Assembly (NCBI GenBank): GCA_001776545.1
Contig: MFBZ01000022.1
Location: 14,065 to 78,064 of the forward strand
Direction: 5' to 3'
DNA: 64,000 nt
Origin: Candidatus Curtissbacteria bacterium RIFCSPLOWO2_12_FULL_41_16
GTDB taxonomy: Bacteria; Patescibacteriota; Microgenomatia; Curtissbacterales; GWA2-41-24
Below, piece after piece: positions 14,501 to 49,879 of the stretch; position 1 is the stretch's first letter; every line of letters starts with the position of its first letter. Made by a program: the position numbers and the translations under genes. The notes under the pieces are model-generated. The model was not told the DNA's origin. It ran no database searches and worked only from the letters and a program-made list of their open reading frames with translations.

Positions 14501-15176
14501 TGGCAGGAAATGATTTGGAAATTGCTGGGCCTAGGTCTGGGTCTGCGATTAATGTTTGAATGACTGAGTCGGTGATGACATCTTGAGTTTGGGCAAGGTC
14601 GGCAATCTTGGGTATATTTTCAAGTGTTTCACGGGTTACTTCATTGGCGATTTCTTCGGAAATTTTGGCTAGTTGATCTTGAGGAATGTCTTTGATGCCT
14701 AAGGACGTGATAAGTGTTTGGACCTGAGGTGTTAATGCTGAAGTTAGCTTGACGGCCGTTTCTTGTTGATGTTTTCTTAATATTGGTTCGATGGCCTCAA
14801 GTTCGGCCAGAACTCCGAGCGCGGACGGACGACCTTTGGCGGCTTTGGCAGCGGTTAGATCTTCACCAGTGAGTCTTGGTACTGCCGACTCCCTTGGTGT
14901 TTCCAGTTTTTGTGATATTTCGTCGATGACCTCCTTGATTTTTTGTTGGTCGCCGACTATTTTTTGAAGATCAGTGGTTTTGAATCTGCTATAAATCCAG
15001 GTGTCGATTTCGTCCGCTGATATTAATTCCAAACCGGTGAATTGTTTCTGGAGCTCTTTTAAACCCGGTAGTTTTTTACCGTTGCCACGCTTAGGATCCA
15101 GTAAATAGTCGATCGACCAAGTTACGGCTTTGAGAAAGAGGGCGGTATCGAGTTTCGCGGCAGCTTCGGCAGGCAT
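11553..15176 (-). CDS. Giant membrane/surface protein with glycine-zipper segment and C-terminal HExxH zinc-metalloprotease motif
   Basis: 1207 aa. The N-terminal ~500 aa are charged and coiled. The central ~300 aa consist of (G/A)xxxG glycine-zipper TM repeats. The C-terminal part contains VIIHEMGHVLG (HExxH), encoded around 11860-11890 on the minus strand, plus Ig-like beta-rich regions. Confidence 0.6.
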   Translation of the reverse strand: MPAEAAAKLDTALFLKAVTWSIDYLLDPKRGNGKKLPGLKELQKQFTGLELISADEIDTWIYSRFKTTDLQKIVGDQQKIKEVIDEISQKLETPRESAVPRLTGEDLTAAKAAKGRPSALGVLAELEAIEPILRKHQQETAVKLTSALTPQVQTLITSLGIKDIPQDQLAKISEEIANEVTRETLENIPKIADLAQTQDVITDSVIQTLIADPDLGPAISKSFPAKNPDKTLPPEIQLNEEKLIQKVTPITSQIAESLKPQLEKSAVLGSLTELSTFRKPSQETLNTISDNVKQIIETSAPLATPQSQEILKASLGTYLVTYLDEFASQIPKISPTTIPSFEDLQKYKEIAHNKATAKIGTAISQNESVKRVGLQIGYGNLTAPLATNLRLAPPKVLPEQKFRLPTGSGLVLSSDKNLSDAQLALLAHDQEWLNRELKKTTLEAGNFKKKMSLTNRERKIYLTSRIKLAKLQKAQELALKKPKRASAFRNIFRDRLALLQATYSAQSFWEYRLDYFRPQTIINSPCFGPRAAFTSIAPGSLSFFGKINPGFRFSVTSLAPSFGMGIAPAGVIGFTPAGIVLGIGHKIRNIAGAVLGGLGLFFLALGQAAFTGFLIGATIGATIGLGVGIGICVALGPFGLLAAPVVIPLSMFTGGIVGGTVGGAIALGLFTGSPTAVTAGIGVGVGGTTGAVVGGILGSAFGPLGTFVGVIAGAYIGSFIGGALGYVIGHYVLSAIGAIGTGAAIGFILGGPIGAAIGAGIGWLAAGGLIQIKNFFAGTTSVATGTTSGIIGTIGGFFTGAASTVWGGITAAAGGALGFLSGAANFVIGLTGLAPSTALAAVPVVGGISAVAIGGTIIGIVTATTFFNPEADLPTAIAPPGETPFFTVTKSATPNRLENNQLPADITFFITLTAKEKGLTGLQITDELKVQAKNGNFTVTQDKNGNLISPPCADTIPETLAANATWSCQFTITADTQAGHDFSDSVVANTVTVTATPESEPTITGNTTATVVIGNPPTICGIIERQGPWSSTENNNIDEICKDLDQSPQAVSLLQNAGTIYLIRVSDGSLGSGVCGTVNGGNRITVACNMTPTSFAKYVIIHEMGHVLGNYNTGIYNNFIGIYNQEGLMPTYPFPPQEITWGVASESFAEMISDYVVSKTHSFNPRSWSGYPGGAWVNPGPGWTTFKNDRPVHYNFAKTQIFGGVEY

Positions 15177-15278
15177 ACTTTAAAGATATCATGAATTGTT
15201 AAATTGTTTTTCATCAATAGAGCAATTTAGCAATATAAGAGAGCTTGGTATCTCGTAAGCTCGATATAGTAATTGAAT

Positions 15279-17099
15279 CTAGAATTGTTTTAAAACGGCG
15301 GCCGATTTTTTCTGCATCTCCAGAAGCTCTTCGGGCTTGGTGGTTACTAAATAGTGTTCGTCTTCCGAGGCGACTATACGAATGGCGACATGGTTTGGTC
15401 CGGCAAAGAAGATGCCTTCACCAACGTCGGCTGCCAGAAGTAAGTGCTTTTCGCCTTCTGATAGATAAAAGACTTCGGCGATCTGATCGATGGCGGCTGG
15501 CGATTGTTTTAGGAGAATCTGGATTGAAGAATTAGTGACGATAGCCTTACCATAATCGGTTCTTAGAAAGTCGGTAACATCCTGAGTGATAGTGGTCAGA
15601 CCCAGATAATACTTTCTGGCCCTTTTGGCGATACTGTACATGAAGGTAGCGCTGTCAGGGTACTGCATCATATACCAGGCCTCATCGACAATGAGAAGGC
15701 GCTTTCTAATATTGTTTTTAATTCTGGTCCAGATAAAGTCTAAAATCAAATACATGGCAATTGGCCGCAGCTCATCCTCCATGTCTTTAATAGAAAAGAC
15801 AGTAAAAGTATTTTTAATGTCGATATTGCTTTGTTGGTTAAAAATGCCAACCAGCGAGCCTTTAACAAATTTCTCAATGCGATCGGCAAGACCGCGGGCG
15901 GCCTGATCTTCCATGCCAAGAAGTATTTTATAGAGATCTTCCATTAGAGGAGGTTCGTTTTTTTGAGTTGCCGGATCAGGGGTAATCCCTTTGGCTTTAT
16001 AGGTGGCAACTAAGGCTCGGTCTAAAAGAGCATCTTCAGTCGGAGTTAAATTGCCCATGATGACTTTGAAAAGTCCATGCAGAGAAAGAATTTTTAGACC
16101 AAGTTCATTTTCGCCTTCTTCATAAACACCGGAGAGGTCAAATGGATTGATTTTAGCGGGTGAGTTGAAATTAAAAGTAATATATTCCCCGCCGATTGCC
16201 TCACAAAGATTTTTATATTCTTCCTCCGGATCGATGACGATAATTTCAGTACCGAACATTAGGGAGCGAAGAGCTTCGAGCTTCACCAGATACGATTTGC
16301 CGGCACCGGATTTGGCAAAAATGACGGAATTGGCGTTTTCTAAAGAAAAGCGGTCAAAAATCACCAGAGAGCCGTTGTGTTCATTGATCCCATACATAAT
16401 GCCGGTATTTGAGGTTAGTGATGAGGAGATGAAAGGGAAAGTGGTCGCAAGGGAGGTGGTATCCATGTTGCGTGTAATATAGATATGGTCAGTGCCCTGC
16501 GGCAGGGTAGTTTTGAAAGCCTCTTCCTGCTGGAGAGTGGCATGTTTGGGGACTAAAAGCAGTGAGCCCAGGGTTGACTCTACTTGTTTGGTGATGGTAT
16601 CCAGTTCTTCACGACTGTCGGCAGGGATAGTGACATAGAGGGCAAACTGAAAGAAGCGTTCGGCTCCTTTGACTAATTCTTCTTGTAGAACCTGTGCATC
16701 TTCCAAAGCAGCTTGGACGGCCGGGTCGAGAACGCGGCCATGTTGGATATCGGTGGCGATGGTAGCTTCCATTTCGGTGATTTTGCGCTTGAGATCATCA
16801 AGAACTCCCTTTGCCTCGACCGGGTAAGAGTACATGGCAATTTCCAGAGTGTGTTCGAAATTAATTAAGGGAGCAAGCCAATTAGCCTGCACAAATCTGG
16901 GGTAGCCTACGACAAAAAGGGTCCTAAAATATGTTGAGCCAACTTTAATGAAGTCGAAATCGACTTCAATTGCCGGAGGCGCAATGATGTCTTTAACTGA
17001 GACGATGCCAGTCGCAAGTGTTTGAACCCACTGCTTCTGCTTATCGGAAAGCTGGGTCTCTCCTGTTTTTTTAGGCGCAAATGGGTTAAATATGCTCAT
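15279..17099 (-). CDS. VirB4/TraC/TrbE-family type IV secretion ATPase
   Basis: 606 aa with Walker A AKSGAGKS and Walker B LLIVDEAW. Size and motif order match VirB4-like conjugation ATPases. Confidence 0.8.
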   Translation of the reverse strand: MSIFNPFAPKKTGETQLSDKQKQWVQTLATGIVSVKDIIAPPAIEVDFDFIKVGSTYFRTLFVVGYPRFVQANWLAPLINFEHTLEIAMYSYPVEAKGVLDDLKRKITEMEATIATDIQHGRVLDPAVQAALEDAQVLQEELVKGAERFFQFALYVTIPADSREELDTITKQVESTLGSLLLVPKHATLQQEEAFKTTLPQGTDHIYITRNMDTTSLATTFPFISSSLTSNTGIMYGINEHNGSLVIFDRFSLENANSVIFAKSGAGKSYLVKLEALRSLMFGTEIIVIDPEEEYKNLCEAIGGEYITFNFNSPAKINPFDLSGVYEEGENELGLKILSLHGLFKVIMGNLTPTEDALLDRALVATYKAKGITPDPATQKNEPPLMEDLYKILLGMEDQAARGLADRIEKFVKGSLVGIFNQQSNIDIKNTFTVFSIKDMEDELRPIAMYLILDFIWTRIKNNIRKRLLIVDEAWYMMQYPDSATFMYSIAKRARKYYLGLTTITQDVTDFLRTDYGKAIVTNSSIQILLKQSPAAIDQIAEVFYLSEGEKHLLLAADVGEGIFFAGPNHVAIRIVASEDEHYLVTTKPEELLEMQKKSAAVLKQF

Positions 17100-18100
17100 A
17101 CCGTTTTTCTTGATTCCGACTGCACGTTGTCGGGAGTACCCACAATTGTGTCATTGGCATTTTGTTGCGGTCGGACGATTTGGGCAACCCTGGCGGTTGC
17201 CTCCTGAAGGTTTTTTAAAGCCTCTACTTGATTATCGGTCGCTGGTCTTTGAGGTACTGGTCTTAAATTTGGACCAGTTTCGTTAAGAGGGTAAGCAGCA
17301 GCCGGCTGGGTTGGTAGGGAAGTTGGGTAGGCACTAAAGGGTTGGTTCGCAGTAATTTGTGACTTGTCGTCTGCTATTTTTGACTGCTCAGTGGCGGGGA
17401 CCGGATTCGGGCCAGAAGGCGGCGGAGCCGGCGAGGGGATTTCAACGGCCGGTTCAACTATCGGGGTGGTGTATGAGGAGGTGTCCAGAAGAATTCTTTG
17501 GGTTCCGGTCGGCGCCGGGTTGTAGATATCGTAGAAAAGCTCGATTAATTCTTGGGTAGTTAATTGTCTGGCCGAAAGTCCTAACCTGGCCATTTGTTTG
17601 ATTAAATGATCACGTTTGGGCAAAAGCGCGATTTTGGCGTCGGCAATAAGCTGCGATTTACCGCCGCTTTTAGTTGGTTTTCTGCCAGTAATGTTTTTGA
17701 AACCGAGTTCAAGCGGGGAGAAGTTAATGATTAAATAAAATTTTTTATCAAGAACCGTTTTTTGCTGGACAGTCGACTCTATAAAATCCAGATATTTTTG
17801 GATTTGTCTTTTAAGATCAGGGTTTGGTTGGGCATGTTCGGCCTCGGAGAGGCTGGCAAAATACGAGGTAATGTCAGCTTTTTTGGAGCGAATAAGAACT
17901 TCTACCGGAAAGGTTAATGAGTTTAGAAGAGCACCATAGGCATAAATCGTGGCATCCTGTTCGGCTTCAGACAAGAGGTCAAAGTTAACGGCAGTTAAAG
18001 ATAAGACAAGAGCAACCCAACCGGTTTTTAAAATTACCAAGTCGTCTATAATATTCTCTATGTCTAAATGTTCTTGAGTAGAGGCTTTAGTTTTTGCCAT
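17096..18100 (-). CDS. Hypothetical protein with a Pro-rich C-terminus (T4SS-locus associated)
   Basis: 334 aa with a 4-bp start/stop overlap with virB4-like. The C-terminal third is Pro/Gln-rich and low-complexity. No assignable domain. Confidence 0.4.
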   Translation of the reverse strand: MAKTKASTQEHLDIENIIDDLVILKTGWVALVLSLTAVNFDLLSEAEQDATIYAYGALLNSLTFPVEVLIRSKKADITSYFASLSEAEHAQPNPDLKRQIQKYLDFIESTVQQKTVLDKKFYLIINFSPLELGFKNITGRKPTKSGGKSQLIADAKIALLPKRDHLIKQMARLGLSARQLTTQELIELFYDIYNPAPTGTQRILLDTSSYTTPIVEPAVEIPSPAPPPSGPNPVPATEQSKIADDKSQITANQPFSAYPTSLPTQPAAAYPLNETGPNLRPVPQRPATDNQVEALKNLQEATARVAQIVRPQQNANDTIVGTPDNVQSESRKTV

Positions 18101-18109: not shown

Positions 18110-19666
18110 TCAGTCCTTTGCTTTGACTTCCAGCGGAGCTAAAATTTGGCCTTCTAAGTTGATAGTGAAAGGCTCGAAGTGGGCCTGTTCACTTTCAATT
18201 TCTACTGAATACTTTCCGTTGGCAAGGGAGGTGACTGAAAGAAACTGTCCGAGTTTGTTGGTTTTAAGGGCACGAACGGGAATGCCATTTTCATCTCTGA
18301 CGATAATGATTGCACCAACAATTGGAGTATTATCTTTGCCACTTGTGGCCTGTCCCGAGAGAGTATTTGGATTAGTGGTTAGAGGAATGATTTTGGCCTT
18401 ACCAAGGCCGGCTGCAATTGAGGTTACGTTGGGATTTTGGCCTACAATAGAGATTTTCGAGTCGGCTATTACCTCTTGTTGCTTGAAGGAGGCATTTTGA
18501 GGAGCTGGTCTCTGGTTTGGTTTTGGAACAAAGTAGGCTTGTTTTGCATGAGCTGCGCGTTGGGTGTGTTTTTCAAAAGAGGTTGTGGTGGCCTGATGAG
18601 ATGGACCAGTCCAGACCGGAGGCTGGTTGCCTTTGGCTGGTTTCGGCTGGGGCTCATTAGTTATTGGTTCTGTAGTTTCCGGGAACCGGAAGCGCTTTTT
18701 AAGCTCTTCGGAAATCTCGAATCTGCGCTCGCCCCTGACTGGTAATTTCGACAGGTCAAAATCGACAGGCGGCGCAAAGTGAAGTTTTCTGACCCTGGTT
18801 TTGCCGACTGGCGGCAAAAAGGCTAGACGTTTGTCTGGCGTTTTAATGGGAATGACAAATTCCTGAGAGAAGTTGATATCTGAGGCCAGGTGACGGGGGT
18901 TTTTAGTTTCCTCTTCTTTCGGAGTGGAGTCTGAGAGCATAAGGAGTTCGACGGGGCCAGCATGGCCCGGGCCAAGTTTGGTTTCAAGGCCAGGGAGTAC
19001 GTAAGGCTTGGCATGGGAAGAAATTTTAACTGATGTGCGGGGTGAGAACATAATTGGAGGTTTGGTAGAAGGCAAGGATTCGGGCATGGGGGGAGTTTGG
19101 GCCAGGGTTAACTGGGGCACGGCTTTGATTTGGGGCAGGGCTTCTGAATAAAAGAGAATTGGCGCGGGTAGCTTTCCTTTGGGCACTTGTCCATATTCTT
19201 GGAGTTCAAGTCTTTGGAGCGCGATTTGCTCTTTGACATCAAGTGGCGCTACCTGACCCTTAGGGAGTGAACGTAAATAAGCAAGGAGCCTGGAGCGGCC
19301 TTGGGCGGTGGTTGTTTCTGGAGGATGTTTTTCGGGCAATGGGGCAGAGGTGACAACATTTAAGAACTCTGGTGTTTTTGATTCCTTAATCCAGGTGCGC
19401 AGCGTTGGTGAAAGAACGGAGCGGATAAAGGCGACTAACCATTTATCCAGTGGACGGCCGCCGAATGGCACAAGAGCGGCGATAAAGCCCAGAACGGCGA
19501 AGATGAGACTGGCGGGAATTTTTAAAATTGGGGCGAGAGGAGAGAAAAAAATCAAGGCGGCGACAGAGAGGGGAATTGCCAATGTTATAAACTGGCGAAC
19601 AGTCAGGTTACCAAAAAGTTTAAATTCAAAAGAAGCAATATGTTGCGGGACAGGATGTTGTTCCAT
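18110..19666 (-). CDS. PrgI/VirB3-like membrane protein with a long C-terminal extension
   Basis: The N-terminus (MEQHPVPQHIASFEFKLFGNLTVRQFITLAIPLSVAALIFF) plus a second TM helix resembles the PrgI (VirB3-like) family of Gram-positive T4SS. The remaining ~400 aa are Pro-rich and end in a beta-sandwich-like segment. Confidence 0.5.
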   Translation of the reverse strand: MEQHPVPQHIASFEFKLFGNLTVRQFITLAIPLSVAALIFFSPLAPILKIPASLIFAVLGFIAALVPFGGRPLDKWLVAFIRSVLSPTLRTWIKESKTPEFLNVVTSAPLPEKHPPETTTAQGRSRLLAYLRSLPKGQVAPLDVKEQIALQRLELQEYGQVPKGKLPAPILFYSEALPQIKAVPQLTLAQTPPMPESLPSTKPPIMFSPRTSVKISSHAKPYVLPGLETKLGPGHAGPVELLMLSDSTPKEEETKNPRHLASDINFSQEFVIPIKTPDKRLAFLPPVGKTRVRKLHFAPPVDFDLSKLPVRGERRFEISEELKKRFRFPETTEPITNEPQPKPAKGNQPPVWTGPSHQATTTSFEKHTQRAAHAKQAYFVPKPNQRPAPQNASFKQQEVIADSKISIVGQNPNVTSIAAGLGKAKIIPLTTNPNTLSGQATSGKDNTPIVGAIIIVRDENGIPVRALKTNKLGQFLSVTSLANGKYSVEIESEQAHFEPFTINLEGQILAPLEVKAKD

Positions 19667-19866
19667 GATTGCAATTGCTAGATTGTTACATTGCTAAATT
19701 GTTGAATTGTTTAAAAATAAGCAGAGCTTTTCTTCGAATAACAATCTAACAATGAAACAATATAACAATATCACCCTACCATATGAAACAAGGTGCGGAA
19801 AGTAGATCAAACAGCCTCAAAATAGGCAGATTTTCACAGATGGAGAGTTAGTGTGATTTGCTGGAA

Positions 19867-24888: not shown

Positions 24889-26409
24889 TTAACCGCCTCC
24901 TTGTTCCAATGGTGGAGGTCTTGTTCCGACACCGCTTTTGAGAGATCTATTTAAGAATGGGACACGCTCTCCATATTTCGCAACCACTCCTTGAGCCATG
25001 CCCCAACTGGCGGCTTGACCGACTGCTCTGATGGGTGCGCCCAGAGGTCTACCAATGACGGCTGCCCCCGCACCGAGGGCGGCAGCTCCGGCACCACCGA
25101 ATTGTGGGCCTTTGGCGCCGATGGCGTTTTTGACAAGATTGGCCGCTTCGGGTGTCATGAAGAGAAATCCGAGAGCTATTATTTTACCAATTGCGCCAGG
25201 ATTAAGTCCACCGACAAGCAATGGGAACTTGAGAGCTTCGGAGGCGACTCCTTGAAGCTCGCCTGCTCCGGTTCCTCCAAATGCCGAAATTCCACCGATT
25301 GCCCCGGCAAATATAATCATTAAGGAAACCGTGGGGAAAACGGCGATATTGGCGGCCATTTGTTTAAACCATTCTTTGGCGCCGGTGTTGCCAGGAAGTG
25401 CCTGGATTAAAAAGAAAAAAGGTGCGACCATTGTCAAAATAATAATCATGACATAGGCCATCAGCAGCATTAAGAAAACCCTAAACATAATAAAAAGAGC
25501 GGCGATGCCGACGATTAAACCGGCTATTCCCCCTACGCCCCATTTAATTAAACCAAGTACAGCGCCGCCAGAGATGACGCTGTCCAATAGGCCCTTGATT
25601 GCTTCAGCTGTTGTAGTGAAAACATCTTTCCAGCCACCGACGATTACACCGAAGATACTTTTGTCAAAAATTACAGATGAAGCTTTAGGGGCAGCAATAA
25701 CACCTGCTTCTGCTAATAATTGAATTATGATGTTTATTACAAGGAACATGAGATCGATCATGAGACCGGCGATGGCATAACTGAAAGTAACTAAGATTAG
25801 AGCCACGACAATTCTGGGAATTGAGTCCTGAACGGTGGCTACGGCTTGCGGTGAAATATGGGCGCGGAACATGATCATGAAGCCGATGATCACAAAGACA
25901 ATAACAAAACCTACGTAGGAGGCATTTCTGAAGACTCTCCAGAGGTTAATTACTGGACTTAAAGCTTTGTATCCTTCTCCTTGGGCATAAACAGGTTGTA
26001 CTGGATTAAACTTTTGGAATTCTTGGGCGAAATATTGGACTCCTGAAGCGGGCGGGTTTCCATATAAACTTGCTACTAAGTTCGATGTTGCAGCTAAGGC
26101 TCCTCTACCTGCGGTGAGTTCATTTGTTTCTGGATGAAGGAGCGAGAATCCTAGGATTTGAGTATTTAAACTGTCAACCGTTCCGGCAATTTGGTTAAAG
26201 TTAAAAATTTTATCATCGAAGATATTTTTATCAATCGCACAGCGGTTAAATTGGTTAATAAGTTCTTGATCTGTTGCGTTTGGGTTGTAAGTGCATTGGG
26301 CGTGGACGGGAGAGATGGTAGCGAGTAGCATGTAGCTGGTAACTAGTAGAAAGGTAACTAGTAACTTGCAACTAGTAACTAGTGACCAGATTTTGGCAGC
26401 TAATTTCAT
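24889..26409 (-). CDS. VirB6/TrbL-like polytopic membrane protein
   Basis: 506 aa with a signal/TM N-terminus, a periplasmic segment, 6 or more TM helices and a Gly-rich C-terminal tail, the organisation typical of VirB6/TrbL. It lies in the same locus as virB4-like. Confidence 0.55.
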   Translation of the reverse strand: MKLAAKIWSLVTSCKLLVTFLLVTSYMLLATISPVHAQCTYNPNATDQELINQFNRCAIDKNIFDDKIFNFNQIAGTVDSLNTQILGFSLLHPETNELTAGRGALAATSNLVASLYGNPPASGVQYFAQEFQKFNPVQPVYAQGEGYKALSPVINLWRVFRNASYVGFVIVFVIIGFMIMFRAHISPQAVATVQDSIPRIVVALILVTFSYAIAGLMIDLMFLVINIIIQLLAEAGVIAAPKASSVIFDKSIFGVIVGGWKDVFTTTAEAIKGLLDSVISGGAVLGLIKWGVGGIAGLIVGIAALFIMFRVFLMLLMAYVMIIILTMVAPFFFLIQALPGNTGAKEWFKQMAANIAVFPTVSLMIIFAGAIGGISAFGGTGAGELQGVASEALKFPLLVGGLNPGAIGKIIALGFLFMTPEAANLVKNAIGAKGPQFGGAGAAALGAGAAVIGRPLGAPIRAVGQAASWGMAQGVVAKYGERVPFLNRSLKSGVGTRPPPLEQGGG

Positions 26410-28208: not shown

Positions 28209-29981
28209 TTAAGGCTGTTGACCACAGTCAATTTTAACACCGAGAGAATCCTGTAAGGCTTTGGGTTTGAGGGCCAAATCACGGACGATTTCTTTACCGC
28301 AATCGGTAGCGCCAATAAATCTTTTCTTGAGATCCTCATCTCCACTTTCAATTTGTTTGCCAGGTAAGCTTTTGGAAAGAAGATCGGGTAGGCAGTACTT
28401 GACTAAGCGCTCGGCATCACCTTGGGCGCATTCACTAGCAATCTTGCTAGTTTGATTGCAGGCTGCTTGGTTACCATCTTTACATCTTTGCACAAGACTG
28501 GCAAAGGTCGGCGGTAAGAAATAATCGCCGACCGCTTGAGGTGTAAAGAAACTATAAACCCCCGGCCTGCCGGTTTCTTGTAAAGACTGAGTTCCTGTTT
28601 CTGCCTGATCCGAGTAAAGGGTACTATTCCAAATTTCTGCAAGCCAGGGGACGCGAAAGACCGGCCAGATTTTTAGAGGTAAAAAGCAAGTGTACGTACC
28701 GTCGCCGTTATCGTCACAGTGATCAAATATCTTAGCTTTATTTTCTGGATCGATAGTAACTTCGCCTATCCAGGTAATATTAAAGGTACAAACTACGTTG
28801 GGATTATCCTGATCGAGTTTATTCTCGTCAGTTTTATTTTGACAAGTTTCACCAGGTAAAAGTTGATCAGCTGGTAAGGCACAATACTTCTCATTGCCTT
28901 CTTTGGCGGGCTTGGAGATTTTAAAACAGCCTGTCGGAGTAGTATCTGTTTGGGCAAAAGCGGTTTTGATAGGATTGGCCGAATCAAGAGAGATTTTAAT
29001 CACCCGCCGTAAGCTTTTGAGGAGAGCTTCTGGTGTTTGGTCAAGTAGCTTCTTACAGAGCGAGAGAGCTTTGGAAAGAATATTACCCGCATCAGCTTGT
29101 TGAGTGATAGTCCCGTGGTCTCGAAATGATTGGGCGGCATAAGGAACAATCATTTGATTAAGCTGATCAGAGGTGGCAGTGGTTCGCCAAAATTGGGGGA
29201 GGATAAATTCGATTACTCGAGGGAGCGATAAAAGACAAAGTTTGCCTGCCTCGAATTGTCTGATGGTTTCCTTGCCCACAGCTTGTTTAAATTCTAATTT
29301 ACCGACATAGAATTCGCTATAAGCTGTGGGGATTTTTTCCCAGTAGCGGCCCCAAGTGGCCAGCCATTGAGTTCTATCCTCATTGGCCTCGGGTGGGTCA
29401 GGGAGCCCAAATTCGCCAACCAGATCATAAATAGTTTTGGGATCACCCTTACCTTCAATATCTGTGTATTTATTGGTAGATTCGAGAAGTGTGGGTTTAT
29501 TGTAGACATACTCCACATATTTTTTTCTCAAGTCATCAATAAGGATTTTGGCAGAAGTCTTTTGGCCAGGCCCATGGAAAAGATTAAAATTTTGGCTGGA
29601 AAGATTGACAATGTTGGCTAGACGGTGGGCATCATCTTGGAATTTGCCCTCAAGGTAATTGGAATTGGTTGTGGAGAAAAGAGCTTGGAGATTGGAAAAA
29701 TCGACTGTAAAACTAAAAGATTGGGAAACGATGACATCCTCATCGCGTTTACCCTTAACTTGAATTGCTTGATCATCAGTGAATTTGATAGGCGCATCTC
29801 TATTTTCGTCGGTGATGTAATTGTCGGTTAATTTATCGGTTTCAACGGCATTTTCGCATGGTTGAGGATTAGGGGGGCCAGCGGCGCTTGCGCCGCTAGT
29901 GATAAGTGATAAGTGATAAGTGATAAGTAAAAAAAATACTATAAGAGAAATGCGAAAAGTGCTTATGATCATACTTTGCAC
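28209..29981 (-). CDS. Secreted cysteine-rich hypothetical protein
   Basis: 590 aa with an N-terminal signal peptide and about 20 Cys residues. The signal-peptide region is encoded by a (GTGATAA)4 repeat plus a T8 tract. Confidence 0.5.
   Translation of the reverse strand: MQSMIISTFRISLIVFFLLITYHLSLITSGASAAGPPNPQPCENAVETDKLTDNYITDENRDAPIKFTDDQAIQVKGKRDEDVIVSQSFSFTVDFSNLQALFSTTNSNYLEGKFQDDAHRLANIVNLSSQNFNLFHGPGQKTSAKILIDDLRKKYVEYVYNKPTLLESTNKYTDIEGKGDPKTIYDLVGEFGLPDPPEANEDRTQWLATWGRYWEKIPTAYSEFYVGKLEFKQAVGKETIRQFEAGKLCLLSLPRVIEFILPQFWRTTATSDQLNQMIVPYAAQSFRDHGTITQQADAGNILSKALSLCKKLLDQTPEALLKSLRRVIKISLDSANPIKTAFAQTDTTPTGCFKISKPAKEGNEKYCALPADQLLPGETCQNKTDENKLDQDNPNVVCTFNITWIGEVTIDPENKAKIFDHCDDNGDGTYTCFLPLKIWPVFRVPWLAEIWNSTLYSDQAETGTQSLQETGRPGVYSFFTPQAVGDYFLPPTFASLVQRCKDGNQAACNQTSKIASECAQGDAERLVKYCLPDLLSKSLPGKQIESGDEDLKKRFIGATDCGKEIVRDLALKPKALQDSLGVKIDCGQQP
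29882..29925. repeat. (GTGATAA)x4 heptanucleotide tandem repeat followed by an A8/T8 homopolymer, inside the signal-peptide coding region
   Basis: The plus strand reads agtgataagtgataagtgataagtgataagtaaaaaaaa. The minus-strand translation is FFLLITYHLSLITSG. Confidence 0.8.
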
Positions 29982-30029: not shown

Positions 30030-30140
30030 GTATAATTGCTACATTGCTACATTGCTACATTGTTTGGTTAAGTTTCTAAATTAAATAATGATGATGTTTT
30101 TCTAAAACAATTTAACAATGGAACAATTTAACAATTTCTA
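30030..30140. repeat. Intergenic 8-bp-period tandem repeat (ATTGCTAC)x3 plus a CAATTTAACAAT cluster
   Basis: attgctacattgctacattgctacattg, then acaatttaacaatggaacaatttaacaattt. It belongs to the (ATTGYTAN)n family seen at nine or more intergenic sites. Confidence 0.7.
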
Positions 30141-30142
30141 TC

Positions 30143-30487
30143 TTACTTTGGTATTTCGACTGTGGTGACATCGACGCCGGTGAGGCCAGCGATTAACTTA
30201 AGGATAAGCCAAGAGGCCACAACTAAAATGATGCCAATGACAGCCATGGTGAGGGTACTACGGGCCTGGCCGGCGGCTTTAGGATCGCCGCCTGAGGTGA
30301 CAAACTGGAAGCCGCCAACCAAAAGCATTACAAAAAAAGCAATACCGGCCGCCGGGGCCAGAAGCTTAATGATTCTTTGAAGAATATCCACGACATCCAA
30401 AAGCTTGGCTGGTGGTGGATCAGTTTGGGCATAGACAGGCGAAACAAAAGCTGTCAAAAGCCCAACCAAAGTTAAGAAAATCCGCAT
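30143..30487 (-). CDS. T4SS pilin-like small membrane protein (paralog 1)
   Basis: Start trimmed to MRIFLT (ATG at 30485-30487). Signal peptide, a hydrophobic helix, a TSGGDPKAAGQAR motif and a second hydrophobic helix, resembling TrbC/VirB2-like and CPR T4SS pilins. Confidence 0.55.
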   Translation of the reverse strand: MRIFLTLVGLLTAFVSPVYAQTDPPPAKLLDVVDILQRIIKLLAPAAGIAFFVMLLVGGFQFVTSGGDPKAAGQARSTLTMAVIGIILVVASWLILKLIAGLTGVDVTTVEIPK

Positions 30488-30497
30488 GAGTTTCTGG

Positions 30498-30887
30498 TTA
30501 TGGTTCGACAGTAGGAATCGTAAACGTACCGCTGATAATGGTGACTCCGAAGAAAGTTTCCACCAATTTAATAATGGCAAAAGCAACCAAGACAATCACC
30601 AGACCAATTAACGCAGCAGTAATCGTATTTCTGGCACCCGCAACCGCTTTTTCGTCTCCACCCGCCAGAATCCAGCGGATGCCTCCCACCAGAAGCATAA
30701 TGAAAGCGATAATGAAGGCGACTACAAGGATAAACTGGATAATTGCCCGGATGATCTTAATAATATCCGCGTTTTTGCTAAGTTGTTCCGGTACAAGATT
30801 ATTCTGGGCAGCGGCTATGGTTGGGAATACAAGAGAACCGGTAAGAATCGCAAGCGGCCCCAGCAATCTTTTGGCATATTTAAACAT
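30498..30887 (-). CDS. T4SS pilin-like small membrane protein (paralog 2)
   Basis: 129 aa with the AGGDEKAVAGAR motif between two hydrophobic helices. Confidence 0.55.
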   Translation of the reverse strand: MFKYAKRLLGPLAILTGSLVFPTIAAAQNNLVPEQLSKNADIIKIIRAIIQFILVVAFIIAFIMLLVGGIRWILAGGDEKAVAGARNTITAALIGLVIVLVAFAIIKLVETFFGVTIISGTFTIPTVEP

Positions 30888-30914
30888 CAGATTCTTTTCA
30901 CCTCCCTTTTAGAT

Positions 30915-31319
30915 TTATCTTTGTGGCAGATTGAATTGGCCAGAGATGATTTGAACATTGAAAAAGGTTTCTACTAATTTGATTATAGCAAAAGCGCCGA
31001 CAACCACAACCAGTCCGATTAAGCCCCAGTAGATTTGGCCCCAGGCGGAAGCGATGGCTTTTTCGTCGCCGCCGGCGAAGATGAATCGGAGACCGGCAAA
31101 AATCATCCAGATGACACCGATGATGAAGGCTGCAATTACTAACAGGAAAATACCGTTCCTGATGAGGCTGGCAACAAAGCCTGAGGGGTTGGTTCCGGCA
31201 GAGGGAATTGAGGACGGGGCCGAGATTTTGCCGAGATCTTGGGCGAGGGCGAGTGAGGGAAGAATAAATAAACTGAAAAAAATTGCGAGGATGGTGATTA
31301 ATTGCTTCATTTTATTCAA
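30915..31319 (-). CDS. T4SS pilin-like small membrane protein (paralog 3)
   Basis: 134 aa with an AGGDEKAIASAW motif and the same architecture. Confidence 0.55.
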   Translation of the reverse strand: MNKMKQLITILAIFFSLFILPSLALAQDLGKISAPSSIPSAGTNPSGFVASLIRNGIFLLVIAAFIIGVIWMIFAGLRFIFAGGDEKAIASAWGQIYWGLIGLVVVVGAFAIIKLVETFFNVQIISGQFNLPQR

Positions 31320-31356
31320 ATAACAATTTAGCCATTTAGCAATTTAACAATTTGTA

Positions 31357-31656
31357 CTATGTTATCGGTACACTTGACCTTAAGAAATATTGGACTACTT
31401 GCAAAATGACAAAAGCCAAAATGGTAACCGTCAAACCAATAATAGCATAGGTTAAGGTTGCTTGGGCCGCAGCCAGTTTTTTTTGGTCTCCTGAGGCAGT
31501 GACGATTTTAATGCCGGAAATAATAATAAAAATAATGGCGATGGCGCCGGCGATGCTGGTTAGGATGAGAATGATGTCGCTGGCGAGAGCGCCGAAAGTT
31601 TCAAAGCGGGCTGGAGGGAAGATAGTTTTGTCAATTGTAAAAGCTAATTGGTTCAT
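31357..31656 (-). CDS. T4SS pilin-like small membrane protein (paralog 4)
   Basis: 99 aa with an ASGDQKKLAAAQ motif and the same architecture. Confidence 0.5.
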   Translation of the reverse strand: MNQLAFTIDKTIFPPARFETFGALASDIILILTSIAGAIAIIFIIISGIKIVTASGDQKKLAAAQATLTYAIIGLTVTILAFVILQVVQYFLRSSVPIT

Positions 31657-31829
31657 GGTTTCTTCCTTCGACCGACTAACGACTAAAGCCGTTCAATAAT
31701 TTTTAATTTTCAATTCACATTCAATTCTTAATGACTTAATTTTGAAATTTAGAAAATGAAAATTCATTGAAAATTGCAAATTGAAAATTACTAAAAGCGC
31801 TAGTCTTTAGTTGGTAGTCGTTAAGCATT

Positions 31830-32204
31830 TTAAACTACCCCACTGTTTCCTAAAAATATCTTGTCAACAATCTGCAAAATGGCAAAGGCCAGGATAATGA
31901 TCACGAAGCCGATGACGGCAAAGGTCAGCCGGCCGCGGGCGGCTGCTGCGGCTTCGGGATTGCCGCCGGAAGTAATAAATTGAATGCCGGAGATGATAAT
32001 GACAATGACGGTGATAAAGCCGGCAATACCCAGAACTACAGGCAAGAATTCGCTAATAATTTTGCCTATCAGTCCTTGTGCAGAAAACTTTTTTTCAACA
32101 TCTGACTTGGGTAAAGTGATTTGGGCAATTATCGCCGTCAGGCCCGTCGGCGCAAGAAGTTTTCTTAATTGATTTTGCATAGTTTTATCCAAAGGTAATT
32201 CCAA
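31830..32204 (-). CDS. T4SS pilin-like small membrane protein (paralog 5)
   Basis: 124 aa with a TSGGNPEAAAAARGR motif and the same architecture. Confidence 0.5.
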   Translation of the reverse strand: MELPLDKTMQNQLRKLLAPTGLTAIIAQITLPKSDVEKKFSAQGLIGKIISEFLPVVLGIAGFITVIVIIISGIQFITSGGNPEAAAAARGRLTFAVIGFVIIILAFAILQIVDKIFLGNSGVV

Positions 32205-33219
32205 GTATATTAAGACCGATAAATTTGAGTATCAAAACCGAGAATATCAAAAACAGCAGTCCGGCGACTGCTCCCACAATTATGTCGCGGCCGCCTGCCA
32301 GTTTTTGCTGGTCGCCGGAAGAAGTCAAGACACGGACTGAGCCGATAACCATTAGAATTAAGGCAATACCGCCGGCAAGGCCAATGGCAATGCCCAAGAT
32401 TTTGCCGGCAAAGGCTGTGGGGTTGGTGGGGATGTCTCCAAGGGCAGTTTCACAGACTCCTCCCGGACAGGGATTTTGGCCGGAAGTTCCGGTACTGGTG
32501 CCCCCACCAGGAGTTTTCCCTTCTTTGACAGTGATGGCTGGTAATTGATAACAAAATTCTGTTGTTGGAGGTATGGTATTAGGAGCAAAATAAAGTTTTA
32601 GGATATGATTGCCCTTTTTTAGTTTTCCGATATTTGCTTGCCACCCTCCTGGGCCAACTGGAGCACCTGCTGTTAAACTTTTAAAATCTTTATCATCAAT
32701 TTTGACACCAAATGATGCAGGATTTGTTCTCAAGGGATCAGAACCTGTAACAGGTTCAAAATATGCCGTAATATCGGTATCTTCATAAAATTCAGCTGGG
32801 CTATAGGCGTCAAACTGAGGACAAGCCCCAGCTCCGGTAGTTGCCTGGACAGTAAAGGTTGAGGAACATTCAATACTGCCATCTGGGCGCTGGAAATCGA
32901 AGGTATAGACGGCATTCACATCGAATGGTCCAACTGACCTTGAGAAATTGCCGTTCGCGTCTGTGGTAATCGGATCACTTATAACGACAAAACCAGGTCT
33001 TCTGACCACAAGCGTGTAAGATTTGTTGGCGAGTGCTGGGTTATTCGAAGTAAACGAAACAGTTGTCTGCTGAGTTGTAGAAATAAAATTGGGAGAAGCA
33101 CCACAACTCCCTACCGCCCTCGCGGTATTATTTAAACCTATAATGCTCCAAAGAAAAATGAGTATTACGAATGAAATAATGAAAGAAATCTTCTTGAAAT
33201 TAAAAATGTTCATCGTCAA
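32185..33219 (-). CDS. Pilin-like protein with an N-terminal beta-sandwich (Ig/adhesin-like) domain
   Basis: 344 aa with a signal peptide and a ~250-aa beta-rich domain. The C-terminus carries the pilin module (TSSGDQQKLAGGRD) flanked by hydrophobic helices. Confidence 0.5.
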   Translation of the reverse strand: MTMNIFNFKKISFIISFVILIFLWSIIGLNNTARAVGSCGASPNFISTTQQTTVSFTSNNPALANKSYTLVVRRPGFVVISDPITTDANGNFSRSVGPFDVNAVYTFDFQRPDGSIECSSTFTVQATTGAGACPQFDAYSPAEFYEDTDITAYFEPVTGSDPLRTNPASFGVKIDDKDFKSLTAGAPVGPGGWQANIGKLKKGNHILKLYFAPNTIPPTTEFCYQLPAITVKEGKTPGGGTSTGTSGQNPCPGGVCETALGDIPTNPTAFAGKILGIAIGLAGGIALILMVIGSVRVLTSSGDQQKLAGGRDIIVGAVAGLLFLIFSVLILKFIGLNILGITFG

Positions 33220-33451
33220 TTTCAGTGTAGCATTAGATAGATAAATTGTTAAATTGTTACATTGCTAAATTGCCGAGTTGGCTATTTGAAGATTTCGGTT
33301 TCGAGAGATTTGGCAAAGGCTTACTTTTTCTCTTGGATATTGTTTTTTCAATTTTTCGTAGTTATTGCTCCCATATATGAATGTGTATGAATGTGTGAAT
33401 CATATCAAGAATCTAGTTTAACACAAAATTAGGCCATGGTATTAAATTGTG

Positions 33452-34027
33452 TTAGATTCCGAAGTAATCACGGTATGGTTTTTCGTTTTCGATGCTGGCT
33501 ACTTTTAGAATTTTGACATCGTCACCTATGTTCAAAAGCTGTCTTAGAAATTCGATTTCATTTTCACAAGGATGGGGTGTTAGGTAGACGCTTTTTTGTA
33601 ATTGAAAGCACTCAAGGCGCTTGAGGATTTCTCTAAGGTAGTTTCTTTCTTTTTTCTTATGTTTGGGAACATCGTAGATAATAAGTCTCCATTTACCGTC
33701 CCACTTTTTGTTCAGTTGCATGTCTTCAAGATTAAACTTCAGTACTTTTATTTTGCCTTTTTCGGTGATTTTAATCGTTTCGTCACCTACAACCTCAACA
33801 ATTTTCCGTTCTTTTAATCTCCTTAAGACTTGCTTGAGCCTTGATTGATTAAACTGGCGCCATTTTTGATAGTCCTTCTCGCGCTTGTAATCCAAGAATG
33901 GCTTTAGAGCAAGGGGAAGGCCTGGTGCAATAATTGTGGCAGCCAAGAACGTGCCGGCTGCCAAAAGAGTAAGTACATTCTTGACCGTTGGACTGATTAA
34001 TTCCTTTTTCGACTTTGTTTTAGCCAT
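33452..34027 (-). CDS. Membrane-anchored protein with a Cas2/PaaX-C-terminal-like domain (hypothetical)
   Basis: Start trimmed to MAKTKSK (ATG at 34025-34027). One TM helix. WRLIIYDVPKHKKKERNYLREILKRLECFQLQKSVYLT resembles the Cas2/VapD-like fold found in PaaX C-terminal domains. Palindromic elements flank the gene. Confidence 0.4.
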   Translation of the reverse strand: MAKTKSKKELISPTVKNVLTLLAAGTFLAATIIAPGLPLALKPFLDYKREKDYQKWRQFNQSRLKQVLRRLKERKIVEVVGDETIKITEKGKIKVLKFNLEDMQLNKKWDGKWRLIIYDVPKHKKKERNYLREILKRLECFQLQKSVYLTPHPCENEIEFLRQLLNIGDDVKILKVASIENEKPYRDYFGI

Positions 34028-34312
34028 AGAGCAATAGTAACACAAATTTAGGCCATGGCATATTTTTGTGTTATTCTTTGATTCATTATTTAATGGGTTT
34101 ATGAGATAATAGAGTCTAATAAACTTCCGAGGGCACTAAAGCCCTCGGTATTGTTCTTTAAGTTTACATGAGCGCAGAAAACCACCAACGTTTGAGATTT
34201 TTATCCCTCGGAAGTATGTATTCGCTTTTTTGCATTCATCCCCGCCTAAATATTCAATTTTTGGCGGGGATATCTAGCAAGCGAATATAAAATTGAGTCT
34301 TTAGCCAACTTT

Positions 34313-43228: not shown

Positions 43229-44548
43229 TTATTGGATATTAAGTTGGCGGTCGATTAGCTTGAACCTTGAATTAACACCTTTGAGGATTTTGATGCGTTC
43301 TTCCGGGCTTCCAAACTGTAGTATGTGTAGTAAATAATCTCTCAACATATCAGTTTGTGTTTGGGTATATTCCATCTTGATTTGTGATCCAGCATTATTG
43401 TGAGGCGTCATTTCAAATCTTGATGATTGGTCAGACATCACTGCAAATTTGAGATTCTGTAATCTCTTAATTTCAATCTTGAATTCCTGCATGAGATATG
43501 AGGTATTCAGTCTTATTTCGGGAAGATAGCCGATTAGTTGTTTTATCAATTCTTGCTCGGTAATGTATGGCTCAGGACAATCATACTTTTTGATCCTGTT
43601 GCAATGGTAGTAAATATGGGAGTTTACGATATTTGCTCTTGTCCTCCTGTATTTAATCTCAGCAGTGACACTGCCGCCGCAGCTTCCGCAGATACATATT
43701 TTCTTAAAAGGGAATAATTGTTTATTCCATTGCCTCGGTGCGACCTGAAGCTGTATTTGCACCTTTTCAAAAGTCTGTTTTGATATTAGCGGTGGGTGAG
43801 TACCCTTATACCAGGTGTCCCCATACTTAAACTCACCGTAGTAAAAGGGGTTTTGCAGAACAAAGTATACTTTGCTAAGCGCCAGTCTGCAGCCGTTTTT
43901 GGTTGTAAATTTAACGTCATCAAGCCATTTTTTAACCATCCTGCCGGAAAATCCTTTGTATGCAACCTTGTAAAACATTTCCTTCACAACTGGTGCCCGT
44001 TCAGGATCAAGTTCTACTATTGATATCCGGTTTTCTTTAAGAATATTTTTGTAACCAATTGGTGCTACTCCTGGCCGAATGCCAATCTCGCACTTATTTC
44101 TAAGCCCCCGTTTTACATTTACTCCCCGGTTGTCGTTTTCTAGTTTGGCCTGAGAGCAGAGAATCATAAGTAGAAATTTCTCGTTTGGGTTATTACTAAA
44201 TGTTTGTGAGTAGGTTTTAATTTGAACCAGTTTCTCTTGATCCATCAAATCAACAATTTTTCCCAAATCTCCGGCATTTCTGCTTAAGCGGTCTGGTGCC
44301 CAAGTTATAATGCCGCTAAGTTCACCTTGCTCGATATCAATTAGGAGTTGGTTGAATACTGGCCTTTGCCCGGAGAGTTTTGCCGAATGGCTTTCTTCTC
44401 TAATTTCCTTAATATGTAAGCCTTCTCGGTTAGCCAAAGTCTGCATTTCCTTTATTTGAGAATCGATGCTCATTGCTTGTCTTTCATCAGATTCAGAAGA
44501 TTTGCGGGCATAGAGGCAATAGTTTATCTTTGGGCTTTGACTATCCAT
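43229..44548 (-). CDS. Large serine recombinase (resolvase N-terminal domain + recombinase domain + zinc ribbon)
   Basis: YARKSSESDERQAMSIDSQ catalytic-serine motif at the N-terminus. About 440 aa with a C-terminal Cys cluster (CICGSCGG...CNRIKKYDC). It lies directly downstream of a tRNA-Ser pair. Start trimmed to MDSQ. Confidence 0.8.
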   Translation of the reverse strand: MDSQSPKINYCLYARKSSESDERQAMSIDSQIKEMQTLANREGLHIKEIREESHSAKLSGQRPVFNQLLIDIEQGELSGIITWAPDRLSRNAGDLGKIVDLMDQEKLVQIKTYSQTFSNNPNEKFLLMILCSQAKLENDNRGVNVKRGLRNKCEIGIRPGVAPIGYKNILKENRISIVELDPERAPVVKEMFYKVAYKGFSGRMVKKWLDDVKFTTKNGCRLALSKVYFVLQNPFYYGEFKYGDTWYKGTHPPLISKQTFEKVQIQLQVAPRQWNKQLFPFKKICICGSCGGSVTAEIKYRRTRANIVNSHIYYHCNRIKKYDCPEPYITEQELIKQLIGYLPEIRLNTSYLMQEFKIEIKRLQNLKFAVMSDQSSRFEMTPHNNAGSQIKMEYTQTQTDMLRDYLLHILQFGSPEERIKILKGVNSRFKLIDRQLNIQ

Positions 44549-44721
44549 ATTCAGGGGTACAGAGTACCGCAATAAACATGGAAGTCTAGCTAGGGGAACT
44601 ACTATGGCCAATTGCGAAAGCCTCTCCTCTCGATAATCAAGCCTCTGTTTAGTATAATTCTGGCTCTAATATATGCTTGGCAAATAGATATTTAAAATCC
44701 GTTGATTGTTAAGGAGATTGA

Positions 44722-47553: not shown

Positions 47554-47887
47554 GTTAAAGCATTAAATATATCGAACTATATCAAATCTTAATTTGAGAC
47601 AAGCCCTTTTTATAATCGCTTGCGATTACATCGCGCGCTCTTGTAACGCAAGAGCGATATAGTGTCTCATTTGTCTCATTTAGCCTCGAAGATGAGACAC
47701 TAAACCTCTCCGATTTGGTACAATACCCATCGGGTGACTATGGGAGCGTTGGGTCCCAGACCCACATGCTCCGCCAAGCGAAGGAAGGTTCGTTCATAGT
47801 GCAAACGAAGTGCACTATGCTTCGCAAAGCGAACATCCTGCCGCCTCCGCTGAAGTGCCGTTTGCGACGGTTTGATTCTGCTACAAT

Positions 47888-48556
47888 TTGGCTGTGAAAC
47901 TCTTGCTTACATCTTCCGGCTTCAGAAATAAGTCTATTGCCAAGGCTCTTGCAGACTTAGTTGGCAGATCTTTTGCTAAAACAAATTTGGCATTTATTCC
48001 TACTGCCGCAAATGTGGAGGAGGGTGACAAGTGTTGGTTGATTGATGACTTAACGAACTGTAAGAAACTTGGATTTAAGATGATAGATATTGTAGACATT
48101 TCTGCCATAGCTAAAGAACTTTGGGAGCCAAGATTAAGTGCTGCAGATGTTTTGATGTTTGGGGGAGGAAATACTTTTCATTTAATATACTGGATTCGAA
48201 AGTCTGGGCTGGAGAAACTTCTACCCCGTTTACTCAAACAGAGGGTGTATGTGGGAATTAGCGCTGTAAGTATGGTCACGAGCAAAAGAATCCTTCTAAG
48301 TGAATCCAAGAAGCTATACTATGAGGACCTGAAAGGTCATCAGGACGAAAGAGGGCTTGGTTTTGTAAGTTTCCAGATTCGGCCACATCTGAATAATAGC
48401 TTTTTCCCAAATGTAAAAGAAGAAATTTTAAAAGAACAGGCGAAAAAGATTCCGGAGCAGATTTATGCTCTTGATGACGAGATGGCAATTAAGGTTGAAG
48501 ATAAGAACATCGAGGTTGTAGGAGAAGGTAAGTATTTACTGCTTAATGTAAGTTAA
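47888..48556 (+). CDS. Peptidase S51 (dipeptidase E / cyanophycinase-like) family protein
   Basis: 222 aa with LLLTSSGF at the N-terminus and FGGGNTFHL..., resembling the S51 Ser-His-Glu triad context. Confidence 0.55.
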   Translation: MAVKLLLTSSGFRNKSIAKALADLVGRSFAKTNLAFIPTAANVEEGDKCWLIDDLTNCKKLGFKMIDIVDISAIAKELWEPRLSAADVLMFGGGNTFHLIYWIRKSGLEKLLPRLLKQRVYVGISAVSMVTSKRILLSESKKLYYEDLKGHQDERGLGFVSFQIRPHLNNSFFPNVKEEILKEQAKKIPEQIYALDDEMAIKVEDKNIEVVGEGKYLLLNVS

Positions 48557-48778
48557 ATCGATGAACCGCACGTGGGAGCTTTACCCGCCCGAATTTTTGA
48601 GGCTGCCAGCTCGGGTGCTATCCCTCCGGGTAGGTGAATTGAAAACCCGCAAATAGTATAATCTATACTCACTCGAACGGTGACTGGTTGCAGAGCGATT
48701 TGCTCTAATTGCTCTCGGAAAAAAGTTCCAACATAGTCAACTAGGCACCGCCGAAGCCCTATAACATTTGACTTCCTA

Positions 48779-49606: not shown

Positions 49607-49879
49607 TTCCCTAAAATTGTATAATCTATACTCGAACGGTGACTGGTTGAAGGGCAATTTGTTCTAATTGCTTTTGGAAAAAAGTTCCAACATAGTCAAA
49701 CAGACACCGCTTGTTAAAACTAAACTTTGCTTATCGCCGAGCCTGACTCGGCTTATCGCAAGTTTGTTTTTCCTCTTCAAAATCGCAAGCGATTTTGAGA
49801 TTTTTACTCTTCTCTTTTAAAATTCATTCCGGCAATTTTGATAGTTGTTTTGTGATAAACTTGTAGTTGGATAGTTTTT

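Follow-up and report, generated by a model that had tools for sequence, protein, structure and literature searches.

A tandem array of six genes in the genome of Candidatus Curtissbacteria bacterium RIFCSPLOWO2_12_FULL_41_16, located at positions 30143–33219 of a 64,000-nucleotide (nt) stretch of contig MFBZ01000022.1 (the whole of this stretch is referred to below as the window, and coordinates are those of the window unless another locus is named), very probably encodes six VirB2-like pilin paralogues (PF18895) of a chromosomal type IV secretion system (T4SS) lying close to the origin of replication (oriC). The proteins are members of a pilin family, are encoded in a T4SS context, have positional orthologues in other Curtissbacteria, and combine a defined domain architecture with a mosaic pattern of conservation. 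The sole genetically tractable Patescibacterium cannot grow as an epibiont without the T4SS and its series of pilins, whose function has been described as completely unknown (PMC11665869, PMC10633639). What the window offers is not a new kind of system but a clean Microgenomatia case for six non-redundant pilin roles over antigenic variation.

The interval is filled by six consecutive minus-strand open reading frames (ORFs) in the ORF listing, named here G6 to G1 in operon order (lengths in amino acids, aa):

32185–33219, minus strand: G6, the long pilin, 344 aa, first in the operon, with a likely start at the ATG at 33213
31830–32180, minus strand: G5, position-2 pilin, 116 aa from its ATG or 124 aa from a TTG at 32204
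31357–31656, minus strand: G4, position-3 pilin, 99 aa, with a hydrophilic N-terminus of 27 aa followed by two hydrophobic helices
30915–31319, minus strand: G3, position-4 pilin, 134 aa from a TTG or 131 aa from the ATG at 31310
30498–30887, minus strand: G2, position-5 pilin, 129 aa, with a GGAGG ribosome-binding site upstream
30143–30487, minus strand: G1, position-6 pilin, 114 aa from its ATG

G6 and G5 are separated by 4 nt, G4 and G3 by 46 nt, G3 and G2 by 27 nt, and G2 and G1 by 10 nt; the AT-rich gap before G4 (31657–31829) measures 173 nt, and a second transcription unit may start within it. A 150-aa version of G1 beginning at a TTG overlaps G2 and is unlikely to be a real gene. Multiple alignment of the six proteins recovered a single core, alignable in all six, in which two hydrophobic helices flank a Gly-rich charged loop, and two hydrophobic 19-mers were found by hydropathy in every protein, as expected from the original prediction of six paralogous genes with a common helix-loop-helix core. 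The loop pattern first proposed, (S/T/A)GGD-x-x-K-x-x-A-x-A-R, holds for its charged, Gly-rich character but not for its exact sequence, which is the looser (S/G)G(D/N)-x(1-2)-(K/E)-x(4-5)-(R/W/Q), with one invariant Gly; the loop Arg is missing from G4 and from G3, which has a Trp instead.

The core was assigned to a family with profile hidden Markov models (HMMs), using the Pfam gathering scores of 26.6 bits for PF18895 (T4SS_pilin, a 71-position profile) and 27.9 bits for PF04956 (TrbC/VirB2), and the curated cut-off of 40 bits for NCBIfam NF045849, the ‘Mbov_0395 family pilin-like conjugal transfer protein’ of Mycoplasma integrative conjugative elements (ICEs). All six proteins matched PF18895, and four reached its gathering score, over profile positions of about 4–71 (G1, 44.6 bits; G5, 36.1 bits; G4, 35.2 bits; G2, 31.3 bits). 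G3 scored 21.9 bits (E = 1.8e-4) and G6 scored 20.1 bits (E = 6.8e-4, residues 268–333), both below 26.6; these two proteins are judged to be divergent relatives of the other four, because many G6 homologues carry a precomputed PF18895 match and because both align with the other four. For NF045849, G5 reached 41.1 bits, above the cut-off, and G1–G4 gave sub-cut-off scores of 23–28 bits (E values of 1e-5 to 1e-6), with no match for G6 in the NCBIfam scan. The NF045849 match matters because Mycoplasma ICEs carry a monoderm T4SS of mating pair formation class FATA (MPF-FATA), and Patescibacterial VirB4 has its relatives in that class. Similarity to pilin families is therefore present, with four proteins above the PF18895 score and one above that of NF045849, and the view that these are pilins of the VirB2/TrbC type, or of the T4SSs of the candidate phyla radiation (CPR), is upheld by the PF18895 matches, by T4SS genes on the same strand and by orthologous arrays annotated likewise.

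The VirB4, TrsD-like and PrgI genes lie 10–15 kb from the pilin array, on the same strand, and a further candidate component is encoded between them and the array:

15279–17099, minus strand: VirB4-like ATPase (P-loop_TraG, E = 1.9e-29)
17096–18100, minus strand: TrsD-like protein (TrsD, E = 6.9e-8, below the NCBIfam cut-off)
18110–19666, minus strand: PrgI/VirB3-like protein (PrgI, E = 2.4e-9)
24889–26409, minus strand: candidate VirB6 analogue, a 506-aa polytopic membrane protein with a signal peptide, assigned from its sequence (weak NCBIfam match to the MMCAP2_0566 conjugal transfer protein, E = 0.035)

The T4SS is considered to be chromosomal and oriC-proximal because yidC, dnaA and dnaN (5962–10608) adjoin the cluster; dnaG and rpoD are found further on. 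Patescibacterial T4SSs have been described as chromosomal, relaxase-less and oriC-proximal, with VirB4, TrsD, PrgI, VirB6 and VirB2-like pilins, and with a VirB4 related to the MPF-FATA type (Quinonero-Coronel et al. 2025, PMC12102498). The same study reported 441 pilin arrays of 2–11 genes, with a mean identity of 25% and a maximum of 54%, abundant in Microgenomatia, an array being defined as at least two pilin genes in tandem or one gene apart, with low mutual identity, in an assembly with VirB4 (PMC12102498). In keeping with that definition, the window has six adjacent genes with 22–45% identity and the VirB4-like ATPase at 15279–17099; it is a further Microgenomatia example of a kind of array that has already been published. 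A series of sequence-divergent pilins in a T4SS cluster has been shown to be essential in Southlakia epibionticum ML1 (Wang et al. 2023, PMC10633639), and these pilins have been counted as six (reviewed in PMC12857230).

The array was compared with loci of other Curtissbacteria, L001 (GCA_024654445.1) and L002/L003 (groundwater). The layout is the same in L001–L003: a divergent SpoIID gene comes first, then the long pilin with the five other pilins, then a gene for a large secreted protein; their pilin arrays are annotated likewise. By BLASTP, the best match of each pilin of the window in L001/L002 is its positional counterpart, with 62–80% identity (G5, 80% to L002 and 65% to L001; for L001 and L002 together, G4, 62–63%; G3, 64–65%; G2, 67–77%; G1, 68–74%). 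The paralogues within the array are 22–45% identical (29–45% by BLASTP), exact nucleotide matches between them reach 11 nt at most, and the best extended DNA similarity between them is 73% over 63 nt. The three Curtissbacteria loci compared agree in the number and order of the genes, with one-to-one positional orthology, and the check for paralogue copy-number variation suggested with the original prediction thus revealed none among them. Given that same-position identity far exceeds paralogue identity and that shared exact tracts are of 11 nt at most, the array is best described, from its sequence, as an ancient, ordered and fixed set, neither recombining nor copy-variable, a pattern that argues for six specialized, non-redundant subunits rather than for gene conversion or copy-number variation. 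One position differs in architecture between the loci: the position-2 pilin has an N-terminal ectodomain of 100–130 aa with the Cys motif CxGFxDCLxDIAV in L001 (9145–9777) and L002 (8733–9458), and its counterpart G5 lacks this ectodomain, being reduced to 116 aa. A gene encoding a 23S_rRNA_IVP (four-helix-bundle) protein is present between pilins 2 and 3 of L002 (9497–9865), at the position of the 31657–31829 gap of the window.

The less ordinary part of the array, and the one that is worth following up, is the combination of a conserved anchor and a variable head in G6. The following parts, in residues, were distinguished from an AlphaFold2 (AF2) model of this protein, with a mean predicted local distance difference test (pLDDT) score of 83.9, and from its sequence:

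up to about 35: signal helix/peptide, with the cleavage motif ARA↓V
36–125: immunoglobulin (Ig)-like beta-sandwich domain 1 (AF2), bracketed by a Cys pair
133–232: Ig-like beta-sandwich domain 2 (AF2), bracketed by a Cys pair
233–248: G/S/T linker, of low confidence in AF2
249–266: conserved beta-hairpin NPCxGGxCxTALGxIPT, around C251-x4-C256
267–300 and 304–339: pilin helix hairpin (AF2)

A beta-sandwich domain of about 250 aa had been proposed to be fused to the pilin module; the beta-sandwich fold is recovered, but as two Ig-like domains in the N-terminal ~230 aa of the AF2 model rather than as a single domain. Foldseek retrieved generic tandem Ig-like modules for this part (killer-cell immunoglobulin-like receptors, the Yersinia invasin InvD, the SiiE adhesin, and Big/FN3 domains of phage fibres), and Pfam assigned the ectodomain to no family. 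A word-indexed search returned more than 150 G6 homologues, from sources named Candidatus Curtissbacteria. When a library clustered at 50% identity was searched exhaustively, 8,068 proteins matched the 99-residue C-terminal module of G6 at E ≤ 1e-3, a set that corresponds to the wider pilin family. Among the best 150 of these 8,068, the module is at the extreme C-terminus in all cases, with 59–88% identity, in proteins of 152–458 aa; it is only through the differences in their N-terminal parts that these 150 representatives form separate clusters. In an alignment of 40 G6 homologues, mean pairwise identity was 0.71 for the pilin helices and 0.60 for the NPCxGGxCxTALGxIPT hairpin, and 0.18–0.20 for the two ectodomain regions. 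Some relatives of G6 have a dockerin domain.

Taken together, the alignment and the model depict G6 as a strongly conserved pilin anchor bearing a head of two Ig-like domains that evolves fast. In VirB2-type pilins, such as those of the F and T pili, the N-terminus is extracytoplasmic, and the ectodomain of G6 would thus face outward. A variable ectodomain on a conserved anchor suggests a host-recognition module, and the idea, put forward originally, that G6 is a tip adhesin is plausible, because its predicted tandem Ig-like domains would be outward-facing and its ectodomain is hypervariable. No adhesins were found in Patescibacterial T4SS loci in the published survey (PMC12102498). Neither the fixed positional orthology of six genes nor a pilin with a hypervariable Ig-like ectodomain and a conserved Cys hairpin was found to be mentioned in PMC12102498, PMC10633639, PMC12857230 or PMC11665869. 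A diversity-generating retroelement was considered as the source of ectodomain variability and was rejected for this locus: no template/variable repeat pair involving G6 was found in the window, and no reverse transcriptase was present among the window ORFs scanned. If the host-recognition role is correct, ectodomain type could predict the host specificity of uncultured CPR lineages from metagenomes. More tentatively, G6 may belong to a large undescribed class of modular host-recognition proteins of Microgenomatia, in which a near-invariant VirB2-type anchor and its disulfide hairpin would serve as a universal socket for ectodomains (Ig-like, dockerin-containing and others) that are swapped or rapidly diversified; a pilin itself, and not a separate adhesin of the VirB5, PrgB or TraN type, would in that case carry the specificity determinant of CPR T4SSs, with the other five, fixed paralogues making up a heteromeric stalk. 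This generalization is possible, although the odds are against it; if true, it would provide a sequence-readable host-range marker for uncultured CPR bacteria.

By analogy with Gram-negative VirB2/TraA and with the S. epibionticum series, the pilins would be inserted through Sec/YidC with the charged loop in the cytoplasm, and a VirB4-powered machine would extract them and assemble a heteromeric filament or stalk on the cell surface. Among them, the short paralogues G1–G5 would be structural subunits, each with a distinct and fixed role, and the long pilin G6 would display a lineage-specific module making contact with, or binding to, the host-cell surface.

Several results weigh against the assignment of the array to T4SS pilins. 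Signal peptides were judged by inspection and hydropathy (n-region, hydrophobic stretch and A/V-x-A cleavage motif), and the leader that had been predicted for all six proteins was recognized, in a canonical Sec-type form, in four of them (G1, VYA↓Q; G2, AAA↓Q; G3, ALA↓Q; G6, ARA↓V); by hydropathy, G4 has no N-terminal hydrophobic segment and the N-terminal hydrophobic region of G5 is weak, making its signal peptide doubtful. The positional orthologues of G4 in L001 and L002 likewise have no signal peptide, and the absence of the leader is thus probably a conserved trait rather than the result of a mis-called start. The HMM search, proposed with both the T4SS_pilin and the TrbC profiles, was positive for the first in four of the six, with G3 and G6 just under the PF18895 gathering score, and none of the six reached the gathering score of PF04956: G3 gave a sub-threshold match of 22.5 bits (E = 1.4e-4) over positions 1–96 of the 98 of the profile, G4 gave 10.8 bits, and G1, G2, G5 and G6 had no PF04956 match in the Pfam scan. 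A profile of 18 array-type pilins returned only noise (E ≥ 0.39) against PDB sequences, leaving solved pilins unmatched. The AF2 model of G1 (pLDDT 69.8) is a helix hairpin (residues 27–64 and 69–103) and, in a Foldseek search of 350,542 PDB chains, its first-ranked neighbour was the Aeropyrum pernix conjugation pilus 8dfu; this match is not significant (E = 2.7, probability 0.75, target template modelling score 0.71, 76 columns, 13% identity), and is consistent with a pilin fold for G1 without proving it. The window ORFs scanned included neither a coupling protein nor a relaxase. Finally, none of the Patescibacterial T4SSs has so far been shown to make a pilus (PMC12857230).

This last point leads to the alternative that survives best, although it seems rather unlikely, namely that the proteins are associated with the T4SS and form no filament. 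The hairpin would then be a permanent membrane anchor or part of an envelope channel or stalk, and G6 would be a surface protein anchored by its hairpin rather than an adhesin carried on a pilus. The nearest curated monoderm relative is the ‘pilin-like’ protein of Mycoplasma ICEs, for which we know of no demonstrated pilus, and an ectodomain of 230 aa would be hard to pack in a VirB2-type helical filament except at low stoichiometry. Moreover, monoderm MPF-FATA-like T4SSs, the kin of the Patescibacterial VirB4 system, are generally devoid of pili (PMC12102498, PMC10633639). However, an anchoring role alone would not need six conserved and distinct paralogues, the family-level similarity is to pilin families, and the best structural neighbour is a conjugation pilin.

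A variation system, in which 8-bp repeats and the similarity of the paralogues would promote recombination, changes in copy number or phase variation of expression, along the lines put forward for the virB2 arrays of Bartonella and Anaplasma, is very unlikely. Such a system would be in line with the tandem paralogues, with the presence of short tandem repeats near some of the gene starts, and with the versatility toward different hosts suggested in the literature (PMC12102498). The repeats correspond to the 8-mer ATTGYTWN, of which there are 36 matches, versus 1.7 expected; they occupy about 12 intergenic sites spread over the 64 kb, some of them beside unrelated genes; the arrays have 3–5 copies and often form inverted pairs 25–45 nt apart:

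33242–33272 (33245–33274 when taken as an ATTGYTWN array): 8-bp tandem repeat (TAAATTGT ×3.9), upstream of G6 and overlapping the -35 box
31324–31353 (31322–31351 when taken as an ATTGYTWN array): 8-bp tandem repeat (CAATTTAG ×3.8), in the 46-nt gap between G4 and G3
30035–30062 and 30106–30137: inverted pair of 8-bp arrays, (ATTGCTAC)×3.5 and (AACAATTT)×4, respectively, between G1 and the next gene
4190–4227, 15195–15234, 19674–19769, 50463–50500 and 61197–61289: ATTGYTWN arrays elsewhere in the window

The claim that each gene of the array is preceded by repeats applies to G6 and G3 only: there is no 8-mer repeat before G5, G2 or G1, and the repeat before G4 is a different, AT-rich one. An ATTGYTWN array precedes the long pilin in L001, and there is none at the orthologous locus of L002. 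Since the repeats are a window-wide intergenic feature, a pilin-specific role for them was rejected, and the variable expression that they had been thought to permit is not supported. Recombination between paralogues, which had also been envisaged, was rejected in view of the longest common exact tract of 11 nt. Also against a variation system are the best extended similarity of 73% over 63 nt, the window-wide distribution of the repeats and the constancy of the gene set, the number, order and identity of the six genes being kept in three Curtissbacteria loci; nor was a template/variable repeat pair of a diversity-generating retroelement found. In the CAAT-reading orientation the repeats tend to sit immediately before gene starts, and in the ATTG-reading orientation directly behind stop codons; the arrays are possibly promoter-associated or terminator-like.

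It is extremely improbable that the six belong to some unrelated group of small membrane proteins, for example holin-like proteins or the pilins of type IV pili (T4P), and were matched by the pilin HMMs on hydrophobic composition only: short hydrophobic proteins do draw weak matches to many membrane families, as in the long sub-threshold Pfam lists obtained here, and there is no sequence match to solved pilins, but four proteins pass PF18895 at near full-length coverage and one passes NF045849, the charged loop and the T4SS-gene synteny are conserved, and, against T4P pilins, sequence inspection found the class III prepilin leader G↓F(T/S)LxE in none of the six, and in place of the single N-terminal hydrophobic helix of T4P pilins all have two such helices near the C-terminus.

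As VirB2-like T4SS pilins, the six proteins can be set beside several known systems. With other Patescibacterial pilin arrays they share tandem, divergent PF18895/VirB2-like pilins and a chromosomal, relaxase-less, MPF-FATA-like T4SS near dnaA, and their number, six, is that of S. epibionticum; that species belongs to the Saccharimonadia, the class that has been studied experimentally, whereas the array of the window is from Microgenomatia. Like the VirB2/TrbC/TraA pilins of Gram-negative bacteria, they are small, have two hydrophobic helices on either side of a short charged loop and are encoded with VirB4; a Sec-type signal peptide is recognizable in four of the six, and G3 has a near full-length, sub-threshold TrbC match; unlike them, they come from a monoderm host, as six paralogues rather than one, and do not reach the PF04956 score. 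The Mbov_0395 family of Mycoplasma ICEs has in common with them a two-helix module of about 80 residues and a monoderm MPF-FATA-type T4SS, and G5 passes its cut-off, but the Mycoplasma gene is carried by a mobile conjugative element, whereas the window array is chromosomal, with no relaxase found nearby. The virB2 arrays of Bartonella and Anaplasma phagocytophilum similarly comprise several divergent tandem pilin genes inside a T4SS locus and are thought to broaden interaction with host surfaces; they belong to Gram-negative, effector-translocating systems for which antigenic variation has been invoked, whereas the paralogues of the window appear to be ancient and individually conserved and offer no substrate for gene conversion. 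The archaeal Ced/Ted pilins (A. pernix CedA1, 8dfu) form a helix hairpin and rank first among the structural neighbours of the G1 model, but they serve an archaeal DNA-import system, and the G1 match is not significant, at 13% identity.

The array is preceded by a conserved promoter-like sequence:

33224–33252, minus strand: putative operon promoter, with a -35 box TTAACA, a 17-nt spacer and an extended -10 box TGcTACACT about 10 nt before the ATG (near-leaderless)

The sequence TGCTA(C/A)ACTG(A/G)AATT is kept about 10 nt upstream of the ATG of the long pilin in three Curtissbacteria genomes (window, 33224–33232; L001, ~7973–7990; L002, ~7979–7992). Scans of the region for promoter and terminator consensus sequences yielded no more sites than expected from shuffled sequences, and the assignment is based on conservation between genomes rather than on these scans. 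It suggests a near-leaderless operon start, with the array transcribed from the conserved extended -10 box before G6. The position of this box about 10 nt before the ATG therefore favours the ATG at 33213 over the TTG at 33219 as the start of G6.

Directly downstream of the array, a secreted protein is encoded:

28209–29981, minus strand: 590-aa secreted Cys-rich protein, of no Pfam family, with 38–42% identity to the post-array genes of L001 and L002

The orthologues of this protein (L001, 11721–13838; L002, 11532–13859) are 115–185 aa longer, with a C-terminal region whose ES...G(L/I)FQ motif is reminiscent of lytic transglycosylases (VirB1-like), and this C-terminal part is missing from the copy in the window. 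Pfam provided no family for the 590-aa protein or for the neighbouring proteins of 460, 506 and 1301 aa, and neither a VirB5-type tip protein nor a VirB7/9/10 outer-membrane complex was detected among the ORFs scanned. Rfam identified no RNA family in or beside the array, and only transfer-messenger RNA (tmRNA) and tRNAs elsewhere. Beside the VirB4 gene, 11553–15176 encodes a 1207-aa protein of no significant Pfam family, in which a long membrane region, polytopic and rich in Gly, is combined with a HEMGH (zinc-metallopeptidase-like) motif in the C-terminal part. Between the SpoIID gene and the pilin operon, 33452–34045 (minus strand) encodes a 197-aa protein with a PaaX_M/Cas2-like domain, for which L001 and L002 have no gene at the corresponding place. 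The gene is flanked by a pair of almost identical palindromes of 36 nt (TAACACAA...TTGTGTTA), at 33419–33454 and 34038–34073; it may encode a regulator that controls its own expression, or be a small module inserted here. Modules of 40–80 nt are repeated at 84–89% identity within 47658–53111 (48671/49630, 49707/53020, 47658/52897 and 47733/52982); this region has tRNA genes, a serine recombinase gene (43229–44611) lies about 3 kb upstream, and the region may be a mobile or duplicated segment.

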